From positions 1-9,220 of IMG/VR virus record IMGVR_UViG_3300039367_000033: a stretch of DNA of 9,220 nucleotides, one strand, 5' to 3'. Made by a program: the position numbers and the translations under genes. This document shows positions 1 through 9,220 of the stretch, in pieces. The DNA is from a virus. Its lineage: Duplodnaviria; Heunggongvirae; Uroviricota; Caudoviricetes. The notes beneath the pieces were generated by a model that ran no database searches, was not told the DNA's origin, and was given only the letters and a program-made list of their open reading frames with translations. Numbering within the stretch: the first letter of the stretch is position 1; each line of letters opens with the position of its first letter.

Positions 1-186
1 CAAATTGGAACTTCTCAATGGCTTAACACCCATCAACAAGAAGCCTTCATATCCCACACTTTTAGAACCCAGTTTTTTAACACTGCTCAATTCATGTGGC
101 AACAGCAAACCTTGTCACGTCCAATTAGCCGGAAGGACTGTGCTCAATTTGTCACAGTTCGCTTTCTTAATTCTGGAGGTCAATGA
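1..186 (+). CDS. 3' end of an upstream gene running in from the left edge (partial, product unknown)
   Basis: Frame 1 is open from nt 1 to a TGA at 184-186 that overlaps the ATG at 186-188 of the ABC ATPase gene (TGATG). A second frame (5..199) is also open, so the frame choice is uncertain. AT-rich like the 5' part of the following gene. Confidence 0.3.
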   Translation, partial: QIGTSQWLNTHQQEAFISHTFRTQFFNTAQFMWQQQTLSRPISRKDCAQFVTVRFLNSGGQ

Positions 187-1094
187 TGACACTACTTGAC
201 ATAAATCATGTGGACTACTGTTACAACGAAGGAACGTCACCTACTATTCATAACATTAGTCTAACTGTCTGTCCGAATTCAACAACTGTCATTATAGGTC
301 CTTCAGGCATTGGCAAGACCACATTATTAAACTTGATCGCCGGTTATCTAAAACCCAGTCAAGGAACTTTAACCATGAACGGCAAATCAATAACAGGGCC
401 ATCTTGGAAGCGCGGCGTTGTTTTTCAAACAATGGCTCTTTATCCTTGGTTAAATGTCCGTGATAACATTTTGTTTGGTCCAAAAATGCGTCATCAATCT
501 TCAGACGATTTTACCATGCTATTAGAAAAAGCTGGATTAACTCATTATGTTAATCGCCCAATTTATACACTCTCAGGTGGTCTGAAACAACGCGTTGCCC
601 TTGTTCGCGCGTTCATCAACCATCCTCCGTTACTCATGTTAGATGAATCGTTTGGAGCTCTAGATAACCATACACGGGCAGAGATGCATACACTATTGTT
701 TGATCTCTGGCGTGCTACTCAAAATGCTATGATTATCATCACTCATGATATTGATGAGGCGCTACGGCTGGCAGAACATCTGGTATTGATGGATCACGGT
801 GAAGTGGTGCAGCAGGGCAATCCGCTGACGATGCTGACTCGTCCGGCGAATGATTTTGTTCGCCAGTTTTTTGGACGTAGTGAACTGGGTGTGCGCCTGC
901 TTTCGTTACGTAGTGTGGCGGATTACGTGCGTCGCGAAGAACGTGCAGAAGGTGAGGCACTGGCAGAAGAGATGACGCTACGCGATGCGCTCTCCCTGTT
1001 TGTCGCGCGGGGATGCGAGGTGCTGCCGGTGATGAACACGCAGGGCCAGCCTTGCGGCACGCTGCATTTTCAGGATCTGCTGGTGGAGGCGTAA
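186..1094 (+). CDS. yehX: ABC transporter ATP-binding protein: C-terminal ~115 aa look like the YehX/OpuCA-type tail ([11 protein letters not shown] plus a CBS-like region); N-terminal nucleotide-binding domain is AT-rich and looks TauB/SsuB-like
   Basis: ORF 183..1094. GGAGG at 175-179 sits 6 nt before the ATG at 186, so 186 is preferred over 183. Walker [11 protein letters not shown]-loop VVFQ, signature LSGGLKQR, Walker [14 protein letters not shown]-loop ITHD. Followed 4 nt later by a permease gene. Symbol applies to the 3' portion only; the gene appears mosaic. Confidence 0.8.
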
Positions 1095-1098
1095 ACGT

Positions 1099-1830
1099 AT
1101 GAAGATGTTGCGCGATCCGCTGTTCTGGCTCATTGCTCTGTTTGTGGCACTGATTTTCTGGCTGCCTTACAGCCAGCCGCTGTTTGCTGCCTTGTTCCCA
1201 CAACTGCCACGCCCCGTTTATCAGCAAGAGAGTTTTGCAGCTCTGGCACTGGCTCATTTCTGGCTGGTGGGAATTTCGAGTTTGTTTGCGGTGATCATTG
1301 GTACTGGTGCCGGAATTGCTGTCACTCGCCCTTGGGGCGCGGAATTTCGTCCACTGGTGGAAACTATTGCCGCCGTTGGACAGACTTTTCCGCCCGTTGC
1401 AGTGCTGGCGATTGCCGTTCCGGTGATCGGCTTTGGCCTGCAACCGGCGATTATCGCCTTGATCCTTTACGGTGTGCTACCCGTCCTGCAGGCGACACTT
1501 GCCGGGCTGGGATCGATTGATGCCAGCGTGACCGAAGTTGCCAAAGGCATGGGAATGAGTCGTGGTCAGCGACTGCGTAAGGTCGAGCTACCGCTGGCGG
1601 CTCCGGTGATTCTGGCGGGCGTGCGAACTTCGGTGATTATCAACATTGGTACGGCGACGATCGCCTCAACGGTAGGGGCCAGCACGCTGGGTACGCCCAT
1701 CATCATCGGGCTTAGCGGATTTAATACCGCGTATGTGATCCAGGGGGCGTTACTGGTGGCACTGGCGGCGATCATCGCAGACCGCCTGTTTGAAAGGCTG
1801 GTGCAGGCGTTCAGCCAGCACGCAAAATAA
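1099..1830 (+). CDS. yehW: ABC transporter permease of the osmoprotectant (OsmF-YehYXW) system
   Basis: 243-aa strongly hydrophobic protein with multiple predicted membrane spans, directly downstream of the ATPase gene; GGAGG upstream of the ATG; GC-rich enterobacterial codon usage. Confidence 0.88.
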
Positions 1831-1918
1831 AGGTATAACCTGCGAGCATGACGCCACCAATTCCGCCTAACGCCATAAACAGGAACAGGGCGATGACTCC
1901 AATTTTAGCTATGCGCAT
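1811..1918 (-). CDS. yohO: small membrane protein, 35 aa ([35 protein letters not shown]), YohO-like
   Basis: ATG at 1916-1918 (minus) preceded by AAGGAG with 7-nt spacing; single hydrophobic helix; TGA at 1811-1813; overlaps the yehW 3' end by 20 nt on the opposite strand. Not in the ORF track because it is short. Name is from memory of the K-12 locus. Confidence 0.55.
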
Positions 1919-1977
1919 AATGCACTCCTTATGTTAACGAAAGGATTGTACAGTAAAGCGCATTTGTTAACGAATCA

Positions 1978-2664
1978 TTAAATGCCGAGTGGGAAAATAT
2001 CATGGCCTTGTTCCTGCCAACTGGTGAGTTGCTGCTGTTGGGCGGAGGTTCGATTTTCACCGCACCACACCAGCAATGTACGGCCTTCGAACAGTTCAGG
2101 GCGTAGTTGATTGAGCGAGTGGGCGAGGACATCAATGCGCCATCCTTGTTGACTGGCAATCCAGCCCTCCAGCCACAGACGGGTGGTATCCTGAATATTC
2201 CAGCCAACCACCAGCGCATCTTTACCCTGTTTTTTACGTGCCGAAGCCAGACAAATGGCAATGTAGTTGATCAGTACGCCGTCGAGGATCGCCAGCAGCG
2301 CCTGGAGAGTCGGTTGTTGGCACTGAAGCCGTCGGCGCAGTGGAATGAACAGATGTGTGGTGAGTGTCTGGGCGGGGTAATCCTGACCGCGCTCTTTGAT
2401 CCACGTTCGCAGGCTATGCAGATTGCCGCTTTGCAGGTAAGTCAGTAATGTTTCTTGCTGATCGCGCCAGCCGTTCTGCACATCAACATTTTCATTACTG
2501 AGCAGCATTTTTACTTTGCTGACCTGCACGCCATTGTCGATCCAGCGTTTGATCTCGCGGATCCGGTCAATATCGGCATCGTTGAACAGCCGATGACCGC
2601 CGTCTGTCCGTTGCGGTTTCAGCAATCCGTAACGCCTCTGCCACGCGCGTAACGTGACAGGGAT
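1978..2664 (-). pseudogene. mlrA: mlrA (yehV) MerR-family regulator of csgD/curli, 5'-truncated by prophage insertion
   Basis: Minus-strand frame encodes ...PVTLRAWQRRYGLLKPQRTDGGHRLFNDADIDRIREIKRWIDNGVQ... through to TAA at 1978-1980. Upstream of about nt 2664 the frame reads SVSLPLI and hits a stop at 2695-2697 with no ATG or GTG; the only start in frame is an internal TTG at 2623-2625. From memory, intact MlrA begins MALYTIGEVALLCDINPVTLRAW, so the first HTH helix is missing. Confidence 0.8.
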
Positions 2665-2699
2665 TAAGGGTAAACTAACTGATTTTACAAGTTTTTATT

Positions 2700-3986
2700 T
2701 TACCCCACTTTCTTATGGGGCATACATGGGACACTTTCAGATAGTCTTTTGTTAAGGAGTTCTATCTGTTCGTGATTGTTGTCTTTCATCCATGCTCCGT
2801 AAACATTGAATACCATTTGTGCGTTTGTGTGGCCCATCTGGCTTGCGATAAAACTAGGATTAGCTCCAGCGGCAAGTGACCAGCATGCATAAGTATGCCT
2901 GGATTGGTACGATTTTCTGTGTCTCAGACCTGCGCGTTTTAAGATACTTGTCCATGACTCCCTGATGGAGTCAACCTTATAGTGCGGTCCGGAAAACTGC
3001 CGCTGTTTTATTACCTGAGGACTAAAAACAAAAGTGCATTTATGCACAGTACTTCTCCCATATTCCCTCTGCTTTACCTCTACAGAATGTTGCTTTCCAA
3101 GCATGGTCATTTCCGCCTGACTTTTAAGAGCATCAATAGCTGGTTGAACCAGATGAATTGTCCTTCCGGTGCCAGCATCGGTTTTTGGTGGAGTGAATTC
3201 GCCAAGTTTTGTATAATTCCTACGGATGGTTATAGTCCTTGCTTTAAGATCTATATCTTCCCATGCCAGCGATACCAGCTCCCCGTGACGAATACCCGTG
3301 TATACAGCGAGAATCCACAGGTTTTTTGTTTGTTGATGACGGCAAGCCTCAATAAAACGAATAAATTCGTCACGGGTGAGAGGATCTGGTTTTACCTTGG
3401 ACTTTTTTAAGGGTGCCAGACCGTTAAATGGGTTTCCTGAGGTATAACCATTATCTGTTGCAAATTGAAACATTCCAGCTATGGTTGTCATATAGTAGTT
3501 TACTGTGACCACTGAGCGCCCTTTTATGGAAGAAATCTTTCCATTAGAAAGCTTTTGGTAACCGGTCAACAAATCTCTCCTTGCGAAAAGTAAATCCTCT
3601 TTTGTTATGGATGAAACCAGTTTTTTCTCACCCAACATAGGCAACATGTTTTTAATTACTGACTGGTAACGATTAAGTGCATTCGCACAAATCTCAATTT
3701 TCTTAAGGTCCAACCATTTTTCCGAAAGTGCCTTAACGGTTATCTCTCTTTTTCCCAGACCAAAGTGTTTCAGGTTAGGGGAATTAGGGAACTGTGTGGC
3801 GTAGTCGAAACTCCCCATTCTGATTGCAAAACAAACGGAAGTGCGAAGTTCACCTGCGATCTTCCGGTTTTTGGCGGTGTCAGGAACACCGAGGTTTTCT
3901 CTGACACGTTTGCCATTATAGTGAAACCATATACGGAGTGATCCTCCATGGTTTTCAACGCCTGTCGGGTATGATACGTTACTCAT
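2700..3986 (-). CDS. int: phage integrase, tyrosine recombinase family (428 aa)
   Basis: ORF 2700..3986 with ATG at 3984-3986 and GGGAGG upstream. C-terminal catalytic-type motifs (LRHRKSYQSRHTY ... MGHTNAQMVFNVYGAW with a candidate active-site Tyr). Position next to the chromosome junction is typical of int next to attL. Confidence 0.93.
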   Translation of the reverse strand: MSNVSYPTGVENHGGSLRIWFHYNGKRVRENLGVPDTAKNRKIAGELRTSVCFAIRMGSFDYATQFPNSPNLKHFGLGKREITVKALSEKWLDLKKIEICANALNRYQSVIKNMLPMLGEKKLVSSITKEDLLFARRDLLTGYQKLSNGKISSIKGRSVVTVNYYMTTIAGMFQFATDNGYTSGNPFNGLAPLKKSKVKPDPLTRDEFIRFIEACRHQQTKNLWILAVYTGIRHGELVSLAWEDIDLKARTITIRRNYTKLGEFTPPKTDAGTGRTIHLVQPAIDALKSQAEMTMLGKQHSVEVKQREYGRSTVHKCTFVFSPQVIKQRQFSGPHYKVDSIRESWTSILKRAGLRHRKSYQSRHTYACWSLAAGANPSFIASQMGHTNAQMVFNVYGAWMKDNNHEQIELLNKRLSESVPCMPHKKVG

Positions 3987-4019
3987 TAAACCTCCCAGAC
4001 GTCCAGGAGCATTAACAGG

Positions 4020-4274
4020 TTAACCGGAACTTGCATTTTTGGCACCTGGTTGTTTCTGGTTTTCGATCCATCGCATAATTTCTTCGATGTTGTACAGGCA
4101 TTCACTGTAATGCCCAGGATCACCTTCTACAGCGTAATGGCGGTATTCTTTTCCCTGCATCCATGACTTTCTCCTGGCCCGCTCGATGGTGCCGGGCTTT
4201 AGCCCTGTTGATGCAATAAGGACTCTCTCCGTACACCATTTGCTGGGGGTTATCTGATAGATGATTGTCTGCAT
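4020..4274 (-). CDS. excisionase-like / small DNA-binding protein (84 aa)
   Basis: Immediately upstream of int in the same orientation (33-nt gap); ATG at 4272-4274 with GAGG 5 nt upstream; small basic protein with a W...R...G..EY pattern loosely resembling lambda Xis. Function inferred mostly from position. Confidence 0.55.
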   Translation of the reverse strand: MQTIIYQITPSKWCTERVLIASTGLKPGTIERARRKSWMQGKEYRHYAVEGDPGHYSECLYNIEEIMRWIENQKQPGAKNASSG

Positions 4275-4292
4275 GCCAACCTCATAAAACTT

Positions 4293-4427
4293 TCATCCAC
4301 GGCAGTGGCACCACACGTCAAACATTCGCTTCACAACTTCACGACAGTAGAAACCGTCACCATCTTGCGTCAGGTCATAGCGATTGCCGTAACGCTGGTG
4401 GACCCATCGTTCAAATGCTTTATTCAT
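4293..4427 (-). CDS. hypothetical small protein, 44 aa (MNKAFERWVHQRYGNRYDLTQDGDGFYCREVVKRMFDVWCHCRG)
   Basis: Not in the ORF track. ATG at 4425-4427 preceded by AAGGAAG, 3 nt after the TAA of the upstream gene; fills the gap between the 80-aa gene and the xis-like gene; ends TGA at 4293-4295. Confidence 0.45.
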   Translation of the reverse strand: MNKAFERWVHQRYGNRYDLTQDGDGFYCREVVKRMFDVWCHCRG

Positions 4428-4430
4428 TCT

Positions 4431-4673
4431 TTACTTCCTTTTTATGGCTCGTAATTTTTTCAGGTGCTTTTCCTGCTCAGTATCCGCGAGAATTTTGCGG
4501 TACTCCTGGTGGTCAATATGTTCGAACAGGCTGTTGAACTCAGTGATGCGTACCCGCCCGGAGCGCCCGTCCATCCTCCGAAAGAATACCGAGTGAACAG
4601 TACTGCGAGTAATTTTTACCGGGTAGCCAGCACTATCGGTGTATATCTGCCCGCGTTGAATCAAAGCGAACAT
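4431..4673 (-). CDS. hypothetical phage protein (80 aa)
   Basis: ORF 4431..4709 begins with TTG; the internal ATG at 4671-4673 (MFALIQRG...) is preferred because the TTG extension would overlap the coupled 27-aa ORF upstream. Basic C-terminus (KHLKKLRAIKRK). Confidence 0.6.
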   Translation of the reverse strand: MFALIQRGQIYTDSAGYPVKITRSTVHSVFFRRMDGRSGRVRITEFNSLFEHIDHQEYRKILADTEQEKHLKKLRAIKRK

Positions 4674-4677
4674 GTGG

Positions 4678-4761
4678 TTATCCCCATCGACAAATCGAGA
4701 ACACAACAAACGCTGCTGCGAATACCACCCCCAGAGTTACGATTGCATCAGGCCAGCTCAT
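4678..4761 (-). CDS. small hydrophobic peptide, 27 aa (MSWPDAIVTLGVVFAAAFVVFSICRWG), probable single-pass membrane peptide
   Basis: Not in the ORF track. ATG at 4759-4761 overlaps the TGA of the DUF551-like gene (ATGA); strong AGGAGG 7 nt upstream; TAA at 4678-4680 is 4 nt before the ATG of the next gene. Confidence 0.4.
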   Translation of the reverse strand: MSWPDAIVTLGVVFAAAFVVFSICRWG

Positions 4762-5303
4762 TGATTCACCTCCTGCGGCGGTTCTGGCAGCGGCATCCAG
4801 TGGGTTACCTCCTTGAGATACAGGTCTTCGCCATCACCGTCATCCCAAGTGGGCTTGCCATCATTAAACCAGTCGCCATATACGCCGACCTGAGTGTTGG
4901 GGATGTTTGGTGGGTAGTTGTTTTTAAAGTCAGCAGCTAACACATAGCATTGTCGCTCTCCCATTTCTGGCATTCGCTCACTACAGCTTATCCAACTCTC
5001 CGGAGTTACCGGAGAGTTGCCAGCCTCATACGCCACACGCATCCAGTGCATAAGCGTTTCAGTGCTCACACAGCCGCAATCAACATCAATTTTGCCGTGC
5101 TGCTGTTCCAGCCATTGCTCAAAAGTTAACTTGTAAGTTTGGCTTACAGGTTCTGCACTATCAGCTTCGCGCCGCTTCTGTAGCTCTGCTGCCATCGCTC
5201 TCACGACTTCAACTGGTGCCCTTGCCGCAAACTCTATGTTGGTGATCAGCTCATTAAGATATTGCTCGCCTGGATACTGTTTCTTATCGGTTATAGTGGT
5301 CAT
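4758..5303 (-). CDS. DUF551-domain phage protein (181 aa)
   Basis: C-terminal region WISCSERMPEMGERQCYVL...VTHWMPLPEPP matches the DUF551 pattern as I recall it (W-I-S-x-x-D/E-R-L-P ... T-H-W-M-P-L-P-E-P-P). ATG at 5301-5303 overlaps the upstream TGA (ATGA); GAAGGA upstream. Confidence 0.75.
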   Translation of the reverse strand: MTTITDKKQYPGEQYLNELITNIEFAARAPVEVVRAMAAELQKRREADSAEPVSQTYKLTFEQWLEQQHGKIDVDCGCVSTETLMHWMRVAYEAGNSPVTPESWISCSERMPEMGERQCYVLAADFKNNYPPNIPNTQVGVYGDWFNDGKPTWDDGDGEDLYLKEVTHWMPLPEPPQEVNQ

Positions 5304-5815
5304 GCTGCGTTTCCTTCTTTCTTATTAACAATTACACCGTCATATATTTCATTAAGGTGTCCTCTTAGCTCCATGCGCCTTAATGCAGATAACATGTAAT
5401 CGCATTCAACCTGCTTATTCCCAGTAAATGGCTTATCGTCAGAATTACCCCAACAGCAATTACCCCTGGGCCATCCATGTACTTTCCGTACTCTTCCGTT
5501 AACAACGTGAAGTAATCCCCAGCCGGGAGGTAAATCCTCAACTGAAATAATTTCCGGCTCACTAATAAAGAATCGCCAGTCGCCCATGCCAAGTGAGGGA
5601 TTTTTACGGAAACGCTTTTTTCTATCTGCCAACAAGTCAGCACGAGAACACTTCGCCTCTATCAGGCATGATGCTGAATTTCTGAATCCCATAGCATCTG
5701 GCTGTTCTCCGGTACTGGTTACAGCAACAAAGCGGTCATGAAAGCAAACCTTGAACCCGTTGCGCTTAAGGAACTTGTACGCAATCTGACAGAGTTCGTG
5801 GTGTGTTAACGCCAT
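5300..5815 (-). CDS. putative PD-(D/E)xK nuclease-like phage protein (171 aa)
   Basis: ATG at 5813-5815 preceded by AAGGAGAG (junction motif copy 1). Motif GEQPDAMGF...CLIEAKCSRADLL fits the PD...E-x-K signature of restriction-endonuclease-like / VRR-NUC folds. The TTG-extended ORF 5300..5875 is rejected. Family assignment is by eye. Confidence 0.7.
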   Translation of the reverse strand: MALTHHELCQIAYKFLKRNGFKVCFHDRFVAVTSTGEQPDAMGFRNSASCLIEAKCSRADLLADRKKRFRKNPSLGMGDWRFFISEPEIISVEDLPPGWGLLHVVNGRVRKVHGWPRGNCCWGNSDDKPFTGNKQVECDYMLSALRRMELRGHLNEIYDGVIVNKKEGNAA

Positions 5816-5816
5816 A

Positions 5817-6257
5817 TCACTCTCCTTTCCCATGAAGCATGGCGGCGCGGCAGGCGTTCCATATTTCGGCAGCAATATCGCGCTCGCTATCGGTTAATTT
5901 GTACGTGGAAACATAGCCAGAGAGCATTTCTACGTTTTCCGGAGTTGCTTCTTCCGGCACTACCGGCGCTGGCAAGGCAGCGTGATAGTAGAGTGGCATA
6001 GTTTTGTACAGTGGTTCGCCAGGACTTCCGTCAACCTGATTCCATTCTTCAACCCAGGCATCAACAACCGCTTTGCTGGTTGATACATGTTCTTCTGAAT
6101 CTACATTTTGTCCTGATATACAGAACATAACTGCTTCTGCTTCCAGCGATGCCAGTGCGATTTCATAAGCCCGACGCTCAATATTGTCTCGGACGTCCAG
6201 GCTGCCTATACGCTCTTTGATTTCTTTAATCAGTTCTTTGTCGGTTAAAGTGGTCAT
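5817..6257 (-). CDS. hypothetical phage protein (146 aa, acidic, ends KGE)
   Basis: ATG at 6255-6257 with GAGGA upstream, overlapping the TGA of the upstream gene (ATGA). N-terminus MTTLTDK resembles that of the DUF551-like protein (MTTITDK). Confidence 0.75.
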   Translation of the reverse strand: MTTLTDKELIKEIKERIGSLDVRDNIERRAYEIALASLEAEAVMFCISGQNVDSEEHVSTSKAVVDAWVEEWNQVDGSPGEPLYKTMPLYYHAALPAPVVPEEATPENVEMLSGYVSTYKLTDSERDIAAEIWNACRAAMLHGKGE

Positions 6258-6463
6258 TTGTTAATCCTCAAAACTTTATGCCCGGGCGCAAAAGCACGCG
6301 TTTTGTCTTTGCTTATTCGCCAGCCATCCTTGCGCGCCTCTTTTGCACAACCAGACCATGACGTACCGATATACTCACCGAAGTCTGGCGACTTATATTT
6401 GCCATCTGTACACTGGAGGCAGTCACAATAGAGATGCATGGTGTAACTTGCGGCAATAGCCAT
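6254..6463 (-). CDS. small Cys-rich protein (69 aa; CDCLQC...C...H, possible zinc-binding)
   Basis: ATG at 6461-6463 preceded by the exact junction motif AAAGGAGAGTGATATGGC (copy 2). The TTG-extended ORF 6254..6535 is rejected. Confidence 0.7.
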   Translation of the reverse strand: MAIAASYTMHLYCDCLQCTDGKYKSPDFGEYIGTSWSGCAKEARKDGWRISKDKTRAFAPGHKVLRINK

Positions 6464-6464
6464 A

Positions 6465-6659
6465 TCACTCTCCTTTAGTGCGCAAATGGTTTTTCCAGCG
6501 GTTTTGCGCCGCGCTGGGCTTTTTGCAAAAACCACAATCCATCATCCCGTAATATTTCATCAACCCCATCCGTCGGTTGCTGAGTCTCACCCACTGCCAG
6601 ACGCCAGGAGCGTTTCTACGAACTAACAGAATCTTTGCTTTACGGTTGTTGGTTGCCAT
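6465..6659 (-). CDS. small basic protein (64 aa, ends KGE)
   Basis: ATG at 6657-6659 preceded by the exact junction motif (copy 3); TGA at 6465-6467. Confidence 0.7.
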   Translation of the reverse strand: MATNNRKAKILLVRRNAPGVWQWVRLSNRRMGLMKYYGMMDCGFCKKPSAAQNRWKNHLRTKGE

Positions 6660-6660
6660 A

Positions 6661-7260
6661 TCACTCTCCTTTGATGCGAATGCCAGCGACGCGTAATGCG
6701 TGTTCTAGGTCAATCAGGTAAAGCCAACTGCCATTTTCTTTAGGTATCATGACATGTCGCTCATCTGCATTTATCGGGTGTCCATATCGAAGGTCGTAGC
6801 GAGTCGGTAATTGAACTTCCCGCGCTTCCAGTTCAGCAATACGCTTGCACCCATCAGAGATAACTCCCTCGTAATACTCGCGCTGCTCGTTGAGTTTTGA
6901 TTTTGCTGCTTCAAGCTCAACGAGCAGCTTCCCAACCGTAAGCGCAATATCCTCGTTCTCCTGGTCGCGGCGTTTGATGTATTGCTGGTTTCTTTCCTGT
7001 TCATCCAGCAGTGCCAGCACGGTAGCCGGGTTAGCCTCTGCTATGAATTCAGCGTTTGCATAAGCCTGAGCATCTGATTCAATCAGGCAGTTAACATGAC
7101 ATTCCGCAATCACGCCACCGGGTTCTCCTTTCCATTTTTGACAAACAAAAACTCCTGTTAAATTGCCGTGCTGGTTAACAGATGTATGCCCTACGATGTA
7201 GCTTCCTTTAGTTGCTTTCTCTGCCTTTTCACGCAGTGCCTGATAGTTAATCTCGCTCAC
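6661..7260 (-). CDS. Ea22-like early phage protein, paralog 1 (199 aa)
   Basis: GTG start at 7258-7260 overlapping the upstream TGA (GTGA), GGAGGA upstream. N-terminal MSEINYQALREKAEKAT... and ANAEFIAEANPATVLALLDE resemble ead/Ea22-like proteins as I recall them; central region has coiled-coil character; ends KGE. Confidence 0.75.
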   Translation of the reverse strand: MSEINYQALREKAEKATKGSYIVGHTSVNQHGNLTGVFVCQKWKGEPGGVIAECHVNCLIESDAQAYANAEFIAEANPATVLALLDEQERNQQYIKRRDQENEDIALTVGKLLVELEAAKSKLNEQREYYEGVISDGCKRIAELEAREVQLPTRYDLRYGHPINADERHVMIPKENGSWLYLIDLEHALRVAGIRIKGE

Positions 7261-7481
7261 TCTTCATCCTCCAAGTCGGCAACGGCGTCCATCACATCAG
7301 AACCGCGAATAACCTCAAAAGCACGGCAGGCCATTTGAAATACCAGTTGCTCTTGCGGGTGAGGAGACTCCCAATATTTGAAGCCTGGGCGATGCGTGTA
7401 CCCCATCATTGAATAAAAATCACCAGCAAGCTTAATCGCGGCATCGACAAGCTCTCTGTTAGTCATTCTTTTTCCGCTCAC
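7257..7481 (-). CDS. hypothetical small acidic protein (74 aa; 69 aa if the internal ATG at 7464-7466 is used)
   Basis: GTG at 7479-7481 overlaps the upstream TGA (GTGA), with AAGGAGG 6 nt upstream; same junction architecture as at 8702-8720. Confidence 0.65.
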   Translation of the reverse strand: MSGKRMTNRELVDAAIKLAGDFYSMMGYTHRPGFKYWESPHPQEQLVFQMACRAFEVIRGSDVMDAVADLEDEE

Positions 7482-8065
7482 TGGTTGCCTCCTTTGCGAA
7501 GCTGGGCGGCTAACTCATCACATATGTGCGTCAAAGAACAAAGTTTGATTGATGGATGTTCGCGCATCATCTCTACCCCCTGCGCCCGCACTTCAGACAG
7601 GAAAGCATCGGTGGCTGGCATATTTCCTGTTGCCTTCATTGCTTCCAAAATAACCAGAACGCCATCTCGCCCAATCTCCTCGCAGATAACCTCGGTGCTG
7701 TCGCCAACAACATCGCAAAATGCCTGAACTGCTTTACGAGCCAGCGCATTCTCCGCCACCAGCGCCGCGAGATTAGTCTCAAGCTCTGCAATTCGACACA
7801 TAGCATCAATATTTGTGTCCTCCAGGCGCTTAATTTCACCAAGCAGCTCCAGTGCAACCTTTGGGTTGAACGCGGCAACATGACGAGCGTTGTTCTCTGC
7901 ATTTTTCTGTCCATCAAAGCCGGTCCATTTGATAACGTCTTCACATCGTTCATCACCGGGCGTGTGCACCGCATAAGTACCAGTATCCGTCGAAATAAAT
8001 GCGACCCATTCGTCTGGTGTTGCCTTTTCTGCCGCCTCACGCAGTACCTGATAGTCAATTGTCAT
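7478..8065 (-). CDS. Ea22-like early phage protein, paralog 2 (195 aa; 198 aa if the ATG at 8072-8074 is used)
   Basis: N-terminus MTIDYQVLREAAEKAT and NARHVAAFNPKVALELLGE align with paralog 1. ATG at 8063-8065 overlaps the upstream TGA (ATGA), with AAGGA 8 nt upstream. Confidence 0.75.
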   Translation of the reverse strand: MTIDYQVLREAAEKATPDEWVAFISTDTGTYAVHTPGDERCEDVIKWTGFDGQKNAENNARHVAAFNPKVALELLGEIKRLEDTNIDAMCRIAELETNLAALVAENALARKAVQAFCDVVGDSTEVICEEIGRDGVLVILEAMKATGNMPATDAFLSEVRAQGVEMMREHPSIKLCSLTHICDELAAQLRKGGNQ

Positions 8066-8706
8066 TCTCGCCATCCTTCACAGTTGTAATCACTACAGCC
8101 TTCAAAATCATATGGGCTGTACTGCCAGGTTATTTTTCCGCAATGCGGACAATTCCAACGCACCTTCCCGCTTCGCGACTTCTTTCTTCTGTTCTGCTCT
8201 TTCAACCAGTCAGGCATGACCAAACCTGCGCCCTGAACCATTGTTCTGCGGTTAAAGTTATTGATATTGAACGTCCGGCGCTTTGCTGCATCAGCAATGG
8301 AAAATGGCAACCAAACTATTCCTGGTTCGTTTTTGTTGGCGACGCTAAAGATGGTCGCTTTACTGAAGTCATCTGTTGGCAATCCACCGTGTTGAAGCCA
8401 GTAAACATCATTGCCGTTCCAGCTACCTTTTTTGTAGGCCACATACGCAGTGCAATCTGACTCAATCAGGCTTTCTGTAGGGATGTACTGGCAATCAACG
8501 TGCCACACTGCCATTGCATCCACGCTATCCGCGCAAACAGGCTGATCGATATCTCGCCCACAATTCCAGGCTTTTTGGGCTTCTTCCAGCGTGTAAACAT
8601 GAGCGCGATCGATATCAGAACTGTAACCATTGCCGTTATGGCAATGGAATGAGGCGTTATTACCCACAGTTTCACGCAAGCACATCATGTAAAAACGGTT
8701 ACTCAC
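8062..8706 (-). CDS. hypothetical Cys/His-rich phage protein with C-terminal zinc-ribbon-like motif (214 aa)
   Basis: GTG at 8704-8706 overlaps the upstream TGA (GTGA), AAGGAGG 6 nt upstream; C-terminal CPHC-(x16)-CSDYNC; the longer TTG-initiated ORF 8062..8742 is rejected. No family recognised. Confidence 0.7.
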   Translation of the reverse strand: MSNRFYMMCLRETVGNNASFHCHNGNGYSSDIDRAHVYTLEEAQKAWNCGRDIDQPVCADSVDAMAVWHVDCQYIPTESLIESDCTAYVAYKKGSWNGNDVYWLQHGGLPTDDFSKATIFSVANKNEPGIVWLPFSIADAAKRRTFNINNFNRRTMVQGAGLVMPDWLKEQNRRKKSRSGKVRWNCPHCGKITWQYSPYDFEGCSDYNCEGWRE

Positions 8707-8942
8707 TGGATGCCTCCTTGGTGGAGTTGCGCTGCGATGCACGAAAAAAAAGACTCCCGTGTATGACTGTTAAGAGCTGGTGCGAACGCCTCGTTAAGAA
8801 CGGCGGCATCACAGCCGTCATCAATATAGAGCGCAATTTTTTTCTCCAGGCGCGCTTTGGCTTCCTGCAACTGCATACCCCGGCACGCACGCGGGATATA
8901 ATCAGCAATTTGAGCGATAGCTTTTTCGTTCTGTTTAAACAT
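8703..8942 (-). CDS. hypothetical phage protein (79 aa)
   Basis: ATG at 8940-8942 with GAGGTG upstream; overlaps the upstream gene end by 8 nt (ATGTTTAA). Confidence 0.65.
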   Translation of the reverse strand: MFKQNEKAIAQIADYIPRACRGMQLQEAKARLEKKIALYIDDGCDAAVLNEAFAPALNSHTRESFFSCIAAQLHQGGIQ

Positions 8943-9138
8943 GCTTCACCTCGATAGGCTTGATGGTGTCTAACAGCAGTCGGCGGCGCGTATTTTCTGC
9001 AAAATGGCGGCGTCCAGTTTCTTTGTGGTAAAACTCGTTTTTGCCAACGACCCACATCCGCTTTGTCTGGTGCAGTTTTTTTACCTGCGGACCGTCTCGG
9101 GTGATAACAATTCCTGTATGAGTTTTTATCACGCTCAT
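8935..9138 (-). CDS. hypothetical basic phage protein (67 aa)
   Basis: ATG at 9136-9138 overlaps a TGA that closes an open frame entering from the right window edge (ATGA); no clear SD, so expression probably depends on coupling. Confidence 0.6.
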   Translation of the reverse strand: MSVIKTHTGIVITRDGPQVKKLHQTKRMWVVGKNEFYHKETGRRHFAENTRRRLLLDTIKPIEVKHV

Positions 9139-9220
9139 TTTTTATTCTTCGGTGCTTTCGGCATTACTGCCCAGTGAGTGATATTGACGTTTTCAAGGTC
9201 CCCGACCTGAAATGTCCACA
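9135..9220 (-). CDS. 3' end of a further phage gene entering from the right edge (partial)
   Basis: A minus-strand frame is open from the window edge to TGA at 9135-9137 (...VGDLENVNITHWAVMPKAPKNKK*). A second frame is open to a TAA at 9164-9166, so the frame choice is uncertain. Confidence 0.3.
   Translation of the reverse strand, partial: WTFQVGDLENVNITHWAVMPKAPKNKK

Follow-up and report, generated by a model that had tools for sequence, protein, structure and literature searches.

Is a small protein of a lambdoid prophage that resembles the PD-(D/E)xK nucleases in sequence a working enzyme, and does the tight coupling of its gene to the next two genes mean that the three products act together? 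These questions are raised by a minus-strand block in positions 1 to 9,220 of the IMG/VR virus record IMGVR_UViG_3300039367_000033 (Caudoviricetes); this whole stretch of 9,220 nucleotides (nt) is called the window below. The block consists of a gene for a protein of 171 amino acids (aa) (5300..5815, stop codon included), a gene for a 181-aa protein with a DUF551 domain (4758..5303) and a 27-aa open reading frame (ORF) (4678..4761). A preliminary description had recognised a PD...IEAK arrangement in the 171-aa protein and had treated the block as a specific combination of functions. As set out here, structure prediction and profile comparison argue for a nuclease and provide it with named relatives, whereas the idea of a specific combination is not borne out by comparison with related loci.

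Fold and candidate active site

The gene of the 171-aa protein begins with an ATG at 5815 and ends with a TGA at 5302-5300. Its computed ORF reaches back to a TTG at 5875; the ATG was taken as the true start because it is preceded by AAAGGAGAG and because homologues share that methionine (171-aa cluster P0004, 1,363 members). The arrangement noticed earlier is indeed present, with P39-D40 encoded at 5701-5696 and I52-E53-A54-K55 at 5662-5651, the two ends of a candidate active-site segment on the minus strand (5651..5701).

An AlphaFold2 model computed from an alignment of homologues reached a predicted local distance difference test (pLDDT) score of 86 and a predicted template modelling (pTM) score of 0.80. 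It runs in the order helix, strand, strand, strand, helix, strand, which is the core alpha-beta-beta-beta-alpha-beta topology of the PD-(D/E)xK superfamily. In this model, D40 stands just before strand 2 (residues 41-45) and E53-A-K55 closes strand 3 (residues 48-54), that is, both hallmarks of the superfamily are present, an acidic residue where strand 2 begins and a (D/E)-x-K in strand 3. Conservation of these residues was assessed in two alignments: A1, with 37 homologues at 59-96% identity, and A2, consisting of A1 plus 50%-cluster representatives at 35-50% identity (39 sequences). D40, E53 and K55 are invariant in A1. In A2, D40 is still invariant and E53 and K55 are kept at 90% or more, both being lost in only one of the 39 sequences (P0152). 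The restriction-endonuclease-like core and the conserved catalytic candidates, on which the first assignment hinged, were both recovered.

Taken as modelled, the 171-aa protein very probably has a restriction-endonuclease-like (PD-(D/E)xK) fold. It is also likely to be catalytically active, with metal-dependent cleavage of phosphodiester bonds as the predicted reaction, since the D...ExK triad is kept across thousands of diverged sequences, which is the pattern expected from selection on catalysis.

Relationship to MmcB-like proteins and Holliday junction resolvases

Which of the many PD-(D/E)xK families stands closest depends on the depth of the profile. Searches of the PDB with the single sequence or with the A1 profile returned insignificant matches only, and the 171-aa protein itself finds nothing in Pfam (E<=0.1) or NCBIfam. 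The A2 profile, in contrast, matched the structure 3dnx at E 7.6e-5 over 107 positions, and significance was reached with this more diverse profile only. The same A2 profile reached the Hjc resolvase of Sulfolobus (1hh1) at E 0.07. In these comparisons the PD...IE(C/A)K segment aligns with VDVMGL...VIECK of 3dnx and with IPDIIAL...ILIEMK of Hjc, the latter being the segment with the catalytic residues D42, E55 and K57 of Hjc. The predicted structure of the 171-aa protein is likewise closest to 3dnx, and the two have motifs in common beyond the catalytic triad, namely K-SR-xDF-xD after strand 3, a G-x-G-D-W-R strand and W-G-L-L. Restriction enzymes and Can2, an ancillary nuclease of CRISPR, are among its fold relatives as well. 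A reading as a restriction enzyme or defence effector was considered and set aside as the best one, because this likeness is much weaker than that to 3dnx and because no PADLOC model matched.

Weaker signals from the relatives lead to the same neighbourhood. Sub-threshold Pfam matches among the 39 relatives are to Hjc in 24 cases (E<=1, best 1.3e-4), and also to AHJR-like and UPF0102; weak matches to PF06319 (MmcB-like) occur in eight of the 39 (best E 2.9e-4), and two longer relatives reach 16.9 and 17.7 bits with PF01870, below its cut-off of 21.1. Among the significant matches in BFVD, a collection of predicted viral structures, the only names that bear on function are 'MmcB-like/MmcB family DNA repair protein' and 'DNA repair protein'. 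A search of PHROGs gave groups of unknown function together with a weak match to phrog_5429, 'DNA repair protein'.

The structure 3dnx (SPO1766) represents DUF1052/PF06319/COG5321, a family that is mostly alpha-proteobacterial and chromosomal (PMC3424549) and that profile analysis has tied to the archaeal Holliday junction resolvases (AHJRs) (PMC1189080). The Caulobacter protein MmcB is described as a PD-(D/E)xK endonuclease under SOS induction; it confers protection against mitomycin C and cisplatin, and a role in crosslink repair has been hypothesised (PMC9578287). Despite this kinship, the 171-aa family differs from the MmcB-like/DUF1052 proteins in several respects. The PF06319 model (E<=0.1) and the NCBIfam models miss the 171-aa protein, which has family motifs of its own (G-M-G-D-W-R, P-x-G-W-G-L-L and K-P-F-x-x-N-K-Q-x-E). 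Moreover, MmcB-like genes lie mostly on alpha-proteobacterial chromosomes, whereas members of the 171-aa family come for the most part from phages and prophages, among them those of Enterobacterales and Vibrio; and MmcB is SOS-regulated, whereas the gene of the 171-aa protein sits in a phage early operon. The likeness to Hjc (PF01870; 1hh1, 1ob8) and the AHJR-like proteins is much weaker than that to 3dnx: the PF01870 model gives no match to the window protein (Pfam, E<=0.1), and the latter has, in comparison with Hjc, an extra C-terminal beta-hairpin and helices (residues ~100-160). RusA and Rap (NinG) are likewise small phage nucleases for branched DNA encoded in prophage early regions, but their folds and families are unrelated, with no match to the 171-aa protein in sequence or structure, and their genes lie in the nin region of most lambdoid phages, whereas the gene in this prophage stands between ea22 and xis.

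Judged from these profile and motif comparisons, the 171-aa family is an unnamed sister of the MmcB-like/DUF1052 proteins in the archaeal-Holliday-junction-resolvase-like branch, and it has no Pfam or NCBIfam model. The earlier statement that its function was not known thus holds in so far as every source calls the protein hypothetical, and no longer holds in that its closest relatives can now be named.

Distribution and genomic context of the putative nuclease family

The family is large and consistently without a name. A word-seeded search for homologues of the 171-aa protein returned 308 clusters, every one "hypothetical"; an exhaustive search with hidden Markov models returned 3,291 cluster representatives (50% identity) at E<=1e-3; and tblastn found it in 642 phage records. 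The gene is present in 910 of 5,426 complete Escherichia coli genomes (~17%), many Shiga-toxin prophages included, and 248 of its 1,297 places in E. coli are plasmid-borne. Beyond these, P7-type phage-plasmids and lytic phages (Vibrio phages and Ackermannviridae) have members of the family, which at 35-60% identity spans many genera, in ordinary syntenic positions. The literature on DUF551, MmcB, DUF1052 and the exo-xis region yielded no study of the 171-aa family. Domain fusions in longer relatives (to TniB, Ea22 or dATP/dGTP pyrophosphohydrolase) were considered as clues to function and discarded, as they look like read-through or mis-called neighbours and offer no consistent clue.

The nearest copies of the window gene, at 99.8% nucleotide identity, lie on plasmids of ~60 kb. 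The one of these that was examined, on the E. coli plasmid pEc42_3 (NZ_CP059122.1; locus L117, 5338-5516), is annotated as a frameshifted pseudogene beside a HicAB toxin-antitoxin pair and is uninformative.

For the comparison of gene neighbourhoods, 80 viral contigs and P7 (nuclease protein 98-100% identical) were set beside 31 genomes of other species (43-90%). The 80 viral loci were found with A1 and are nearly all E. coli-type close relatives that do not count as independent; diversity comes from the 31 genome loci and four annotated phages. Among the 148 neighbouring ORFs of the 31 diverse loci, the most frequent families are Ead/Ea22 proteins (seven times), DNA methylases of three types (seven times) and DUF551 proteins (four times); further neighbours are NinB, NinG, RusA, Q, integrase, excisionase, DNA polymerase III theta, RdgC and an exonuclease. 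In the four annotated phages, which are unrelated, the gene lies among genes of DNA metabolism. In Vibrio phage MAR10 the nuclease gene follows those for DNA polymerase, primase-helicase and an SNF2 helicase, and in Klebsiella phage FKP10 it precedes a primase gene. In Vibrio phage D273, NinB/Orf and a methylase are encoded on its upstream side and an HNH endonuclease on its downstream side, with a recombination exonuclease further downstream, and in Klebsiella phage 2 LV-2017 it stands between replication genes and NinB/NinE/NinG. The lytic Vibrio phages and Ackermannviridae (MAR10, FKP10, D273) have no DUF551 annotated near the nuclease gene.

The phage-plasmid P7 provides a close comparison. 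Its Upf89.0 (YP_009914570.1; NC_050152.1 89016-89531, or 4001-4516 of locus L001) is 96.5% identical to the window protein over all 171 residues, and the local order is also as in the window: an Ead/Ea22-like gene, a 1-nt spacer, the nuclease gene, an ATGA overlap and a modular protein. That modular protein, Upf89.5 (432 aa), has only its middle module in common with the window DUF551 protein and no DUF551 match. A predicted C1 operator lies ahead of the P7 operon, in which the nuclease gene comes after the Ea22-like gene and all are co-directional; the nuclease gene is thus expected to be expressed in lytic growth and not in the lysogen. The RefSeq product name of Upf89.0 is 'minor tail protein', although its own note says that the function is unknown; the label conflicts with a nuclease fold and is probably an annotation error.

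The downstream DUF551 gene and the question of pairing

The description of the block as tightly coupled was correct as far as the overlaps are concerned. The stop of the nuclease gene overlaps the start of the DUF551 gene, and the stop of the latter overlaps the start of the 27-aa ORF, both as ATGA (plus-strand 'tcat' at 5300-5303 and 4758-4761). This is not distinctive, however, since at least eight successive gene junctions, from 7481 to 4758, each consist of a 4-nt overlap or a 1-nt spacer. On its other side, the nuclease gene begins at a 16-nt junction, AAAGGAGAGTGATATG (5813..5828, minus strand), which contains the ribosome-binding site (RBS), the TGA stop of the upstream gene, one further nucleotide and the nuclease ATG. 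This 16-mer recurs identically at 6461-6476 and 6657-6672 on the same strand, that is, three exact matches against 0.06 expected, with three successive genes beginning at its copies. In related loci nearly all proteins upstream of the nuclease gene end in ...KGE*, with the ATG 1 nt later. The 16-mer has the look of a conserved boundary between modules, where lambdoid genes are exchanged for one another.

The DUF551 assignment of the 181-aa protein is firm: PF04448 matches residues 103-177 with 73.2 bits (cut-off 22; E 3.1e-20) over profile positions 1-68 of 68. The protein consists of a helical N-terminal part and the C-terminal DUF551 domain. Its predicted structure, from a 25-sequence alignment, is too poor for a fold search (pLDDT 49, pTM 0.29) and suggests a helical N-terminal half followed by a strand-rich DUF551 part. 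Of more than 7,500 relatives, the one that matches the protein best over its full length is 77% identical, and the alignment shows block-wise mosaicism with an uncommon combination of modules. DUF551 has been called a portable domain that many unrelated proteins carry (PMC10834534, PMC4776307).

Of the 81 E. coli-type loci, 77 have a downstream gene that begins at this ATGA overlap, but what begins there varies greatly. The encoded proteins are shuffled and modular, 61 to 432 aa long; they differ in their middle modules and start with one of two or three alternative N-termini. By simple motifs, DUF551 was scored as intact in 22 of the 81, as a mere stub (...WISCSERMPDDRQEVNQ*) in 35 and as absent in 20, the remaining four having something else or no ORF. 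Pfam finds DUF551 in 27 of 39 distinct E. coli-type partners, a figure in which stubs are probably counted. In the diverse genomes DUF551 is the exception, with two of 25 distinct partners by Pfam and three of 28 loci by motif; the other partners there are two N6/N4 DNA methylases, RusA, an Ea22-like protein, TraC and unknowns. The partner is thus hypervariable, usually a different gene in other genera and often without an intact DUF551, from which it follows that the nuclease gene has no fixed partner and that the combination in the window is a product of module shuffling. The specific functional combination of nuclease, DUF551 protein and 27-aa ORF proposed earlier is therefore not supported, and the stretch from ea22 to xis consists of freely shuffled modules strung together by translational coupling.

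Several details of this shuffling may be added. The DUF551 stubs, of ~20 residues, keep the first and last few residues of the domain (...PVTPDGWISCSERMPDDRQEVNQ*; loci L007, L008, L015, L021, L028, L038, L041, L058, L062, L063, L065 and others), and on sequence comparison they appear to stem from recurrent internal deletion of the domain core. The 146-aa protein encoded upstream of the nuclease gene (5817-6257) has an N-terminus, MTTLTDKELIKEI..., and a C-terminus, ...YKLTDSERDIAAEIWNACRAAMLHGKGE, that are found as modules downstream of the nuclease gene in L011, L012, L014, L017, L022 and L070; the MTTLTDKELIKEI N-terminus is sometimes fused to DUF551 in other phages, and the same modules hence occur on either side of the nuclease gene. 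The partners in L011 and L014 combine a dATP/dGTP pyrophosphohydrolase module (PF04447, MazZ-like) with DUF551, and in P0224 the nuclease domain is fused to PF04447, probably by read-through.

The 27-aa peptide, MSWPDAIVTLGVVFAAAFVVFSICRWG, is small, hydrophobic and membrane-like. It is conserved in 54 copies in L002-L112 with the pattern MxWP[DE]A...ICRWG, and two copies have a stop at codon 3. Because W3-P4, the hydrophobic core and the final C-R-W-G persist even in diverged variants, the ORF is probably a real gene for a small membrane protein. It belongs with the conserved integrase-proximal block and not with the nuclease.

Proposed function

On balance, the similarities described above speak for a stand-alone, metal-dependent PD-(D/E)xK DNA endonuclease without an obligate partner, and we regard this as the probable function of the 171-aa protein. 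As to its substrate, the fold relatives and the DNA-metabolism neighbours point, tentatively and with slightly less than even confidence on our part, to branched or damaged DNA in phage replication, recombination or repair. Under this proposal, the nuclease would be an early product of lytic growth, its gene being one of the cistrons in a long leftward operon that extends from the ea22 genes as far as xis and int. The enzyme would be small and probably oligomeric, and would cut junctions, forks, flaps or lesion-containing DNA, and the cutting would aid phage replication, recombination or repair, as is thought for Hjc, RusA, Rap and MmcB. The DUF551 protein and the 27-aa peptide would have been joined to the nuclease gene by shuffling at conserved junctions, being translationally coupled to it like the whole operon but not required as partners.

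Several observations weigh against this proposal. In A1 and A2, helix 1 (residues 5-18) is without a conserved acidic residue, whereas Hjc has one there (E12). H5, L8, C9 and L16 are the conserved positions there, and D/E27 and E37 are conserved outside the helix; with H5 in place of an acidic residue, the active site may differ in detail from that of Hjc. In addition, PD-(D/E)xK folds are also used in restriction, in defence effectors, in RNA cleavage and in non-catalytic roles, and lambdoid phages already have the junction nucleases Rap/NinG and RusA, so that an extra resolvase is not obviously needed. Finally, the seven DNA methylases near the nuclease gene in the 31 loci could hint at a modification-related role.

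Alternative explanations

The coupling of the genes invites the view that the nuclease is one part of a two-component system, with the DUF551 protein as a targeting, regulatory or inhibitory subunit and perhaps the 27-aa peptide as a third part. The overlaps at both junctions, the ATGA start kept in nearly all E. coli-type loci and the frequency of DUF551 among the distinct downstream proteins would fit, and even the hypervariability of the partner could mean an arms race. Yet overlaps just as tight follow one another through the operon; next to a nuclease that is 98-100% identical, the partner varies several-fold in length and in most loci is without DUF551 or has a stub of it; only two or three partners among 25 diverse genomes contain the domain, the rest being the methylases, RusA, Ea22, TraC and unknowns; and the lytic phages manage with no DUF551 annotated near the nuclease gene. 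Together with the portability of the domain (PMC10834534), these points make such a system very improbable. A variant in which the downstream protein is an exchangeable adaptor, with a constant N-terminal segment and shuffled modules often ended by DUF551, that would steer or restrain the nuclease is, in our judgement, slightly more doubtful again; if true, it would amount to an undescribed kind of diversifying nuclease-plus-specificity cassette, used in conflicts between phage and host or between phages. The juxtaposition of a near-invariant nuclease gene with two hypervariable flanks, and the threefold 16-nt junction in the window, might instead be read as the work of a selfish, homing-type endonuclease that cuts at or near conserved junctions and drives its own spread along with the module shuffling, and some homing endonucleases do have a PD-(D/E)xK fold. 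However, conserved junctions are ordinary in lambdoid mosaics and this one is conserved because the RBS lies in it, the family at 35-60% identity occupies ordinary syntenic positions across many genera, and the 171-aa protein has no separate DNA-recognition domain, which leaves homing extremely unlikely.

A further class of explanations accepts a gene without a partner and gives it another task. The protein could be a nuclease of defence, anti-defence or exclusion that degrades host DNA, the DNA of rival phages or the nucleic acid of defence systems, as might be expected of a gene that lies in a non-essential, highly mosaic accessory region, moves among lambdoid prophages, P7-type phage-plasmids and plasmids (the 248 plasmid-borne places in E. 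coli), often adjoins DNA methylase genes and counts restriction enzymes and Can2 among its fold relatives. Nevertheless, neither the three products of the block nor three neighbours matched any model of PADLOC-DB v2 (E<=0.1), and the 171-aa protein is a single domain without a sensor or specificity domain. The P7 gene lies behind a repressor operator, so that it is probably silent in the lysogen, and in lytic phages the nuclease gene is found within replication modules. A defence role is, in view of this, unlikely. The protein might also have kept the fold and lost the chemistry, acting as a DNA-binding or regulatory protein on the lysis-lysogeny decision like other products of the exo-xis/ea region; Ea22 and other genes of the region do act on developmental decisions and not on DNA chemistry (PMC10834534). 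This appears quite improbable, since the D...ExK triad and its surrounding motifs persist in thousands of diverged sequences and E53 and K55 are lost in only one of the 39 sequences sampled (P0152). The reading as a stand-alone endonuclease is thus the one that we retain.

Other features of the window

The remaining genes of the window identify the region: it is the part of a lambdoid prophage's early leftward operon that lies nearest the integrase gene. Around the block, all genes run on the minus strand. Upstream of the gene for the 146-aa protein (5817-6257, minus strand; phrog_5117) lie those for a 69-aa protein (phrog_926) and a 64-aa ORF, two Ead/Ea22-like genes (6661-7260 and 7478-8074, both minus; PF13935, E 4e-40 and 9e-20) and a gene for a 226-aa protein (phrog_2457). 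The two Ead/Ea22-like paralogues have only a 74-aa ORF between them and differ in their C-terminal parts. On the other side of the 27-aa ORF come genes for a DUF4222 protein and a DUF1233 excisionase, followed by a tyrosine integrase gene (2700-3986). A scan of 4000-9220 for promoters and terminators found no site above chance, which is compatible with one long transcript and proves nothing.

Beyond the integrase gene, the window holds an ABC transporter gene pair and mlrA (yehV; 1978-2700, minus). The mlrA frame is intact from ...PVTLRAWQRRYGLL on, and its ~16 leading codons are replaced by unrelated sequence after stop codons, adjoining the integrase gene; thus, the prophage is inserted in the 5' end of mlrA. 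The yehV/mlrA site is a known integration site of Stx1-type prophages, and insertion there affects curli regulation.

Implications

The 171-aa family is annotated only as "hypothetical protein" (as "minor tail protein" in P7), despite its presence in about one in six complete E. coli genomes. Its placement beside the MmcB-like/DUF1052 proteins and Hjc offers a testable hypothesis of function, namely that of a structure-specific endonuclease with three candidate catalytic residues, and a family model for annotation pipelines would be justified. A tidy gene pair in the ea22-to-xis region is not to be taken as a system.

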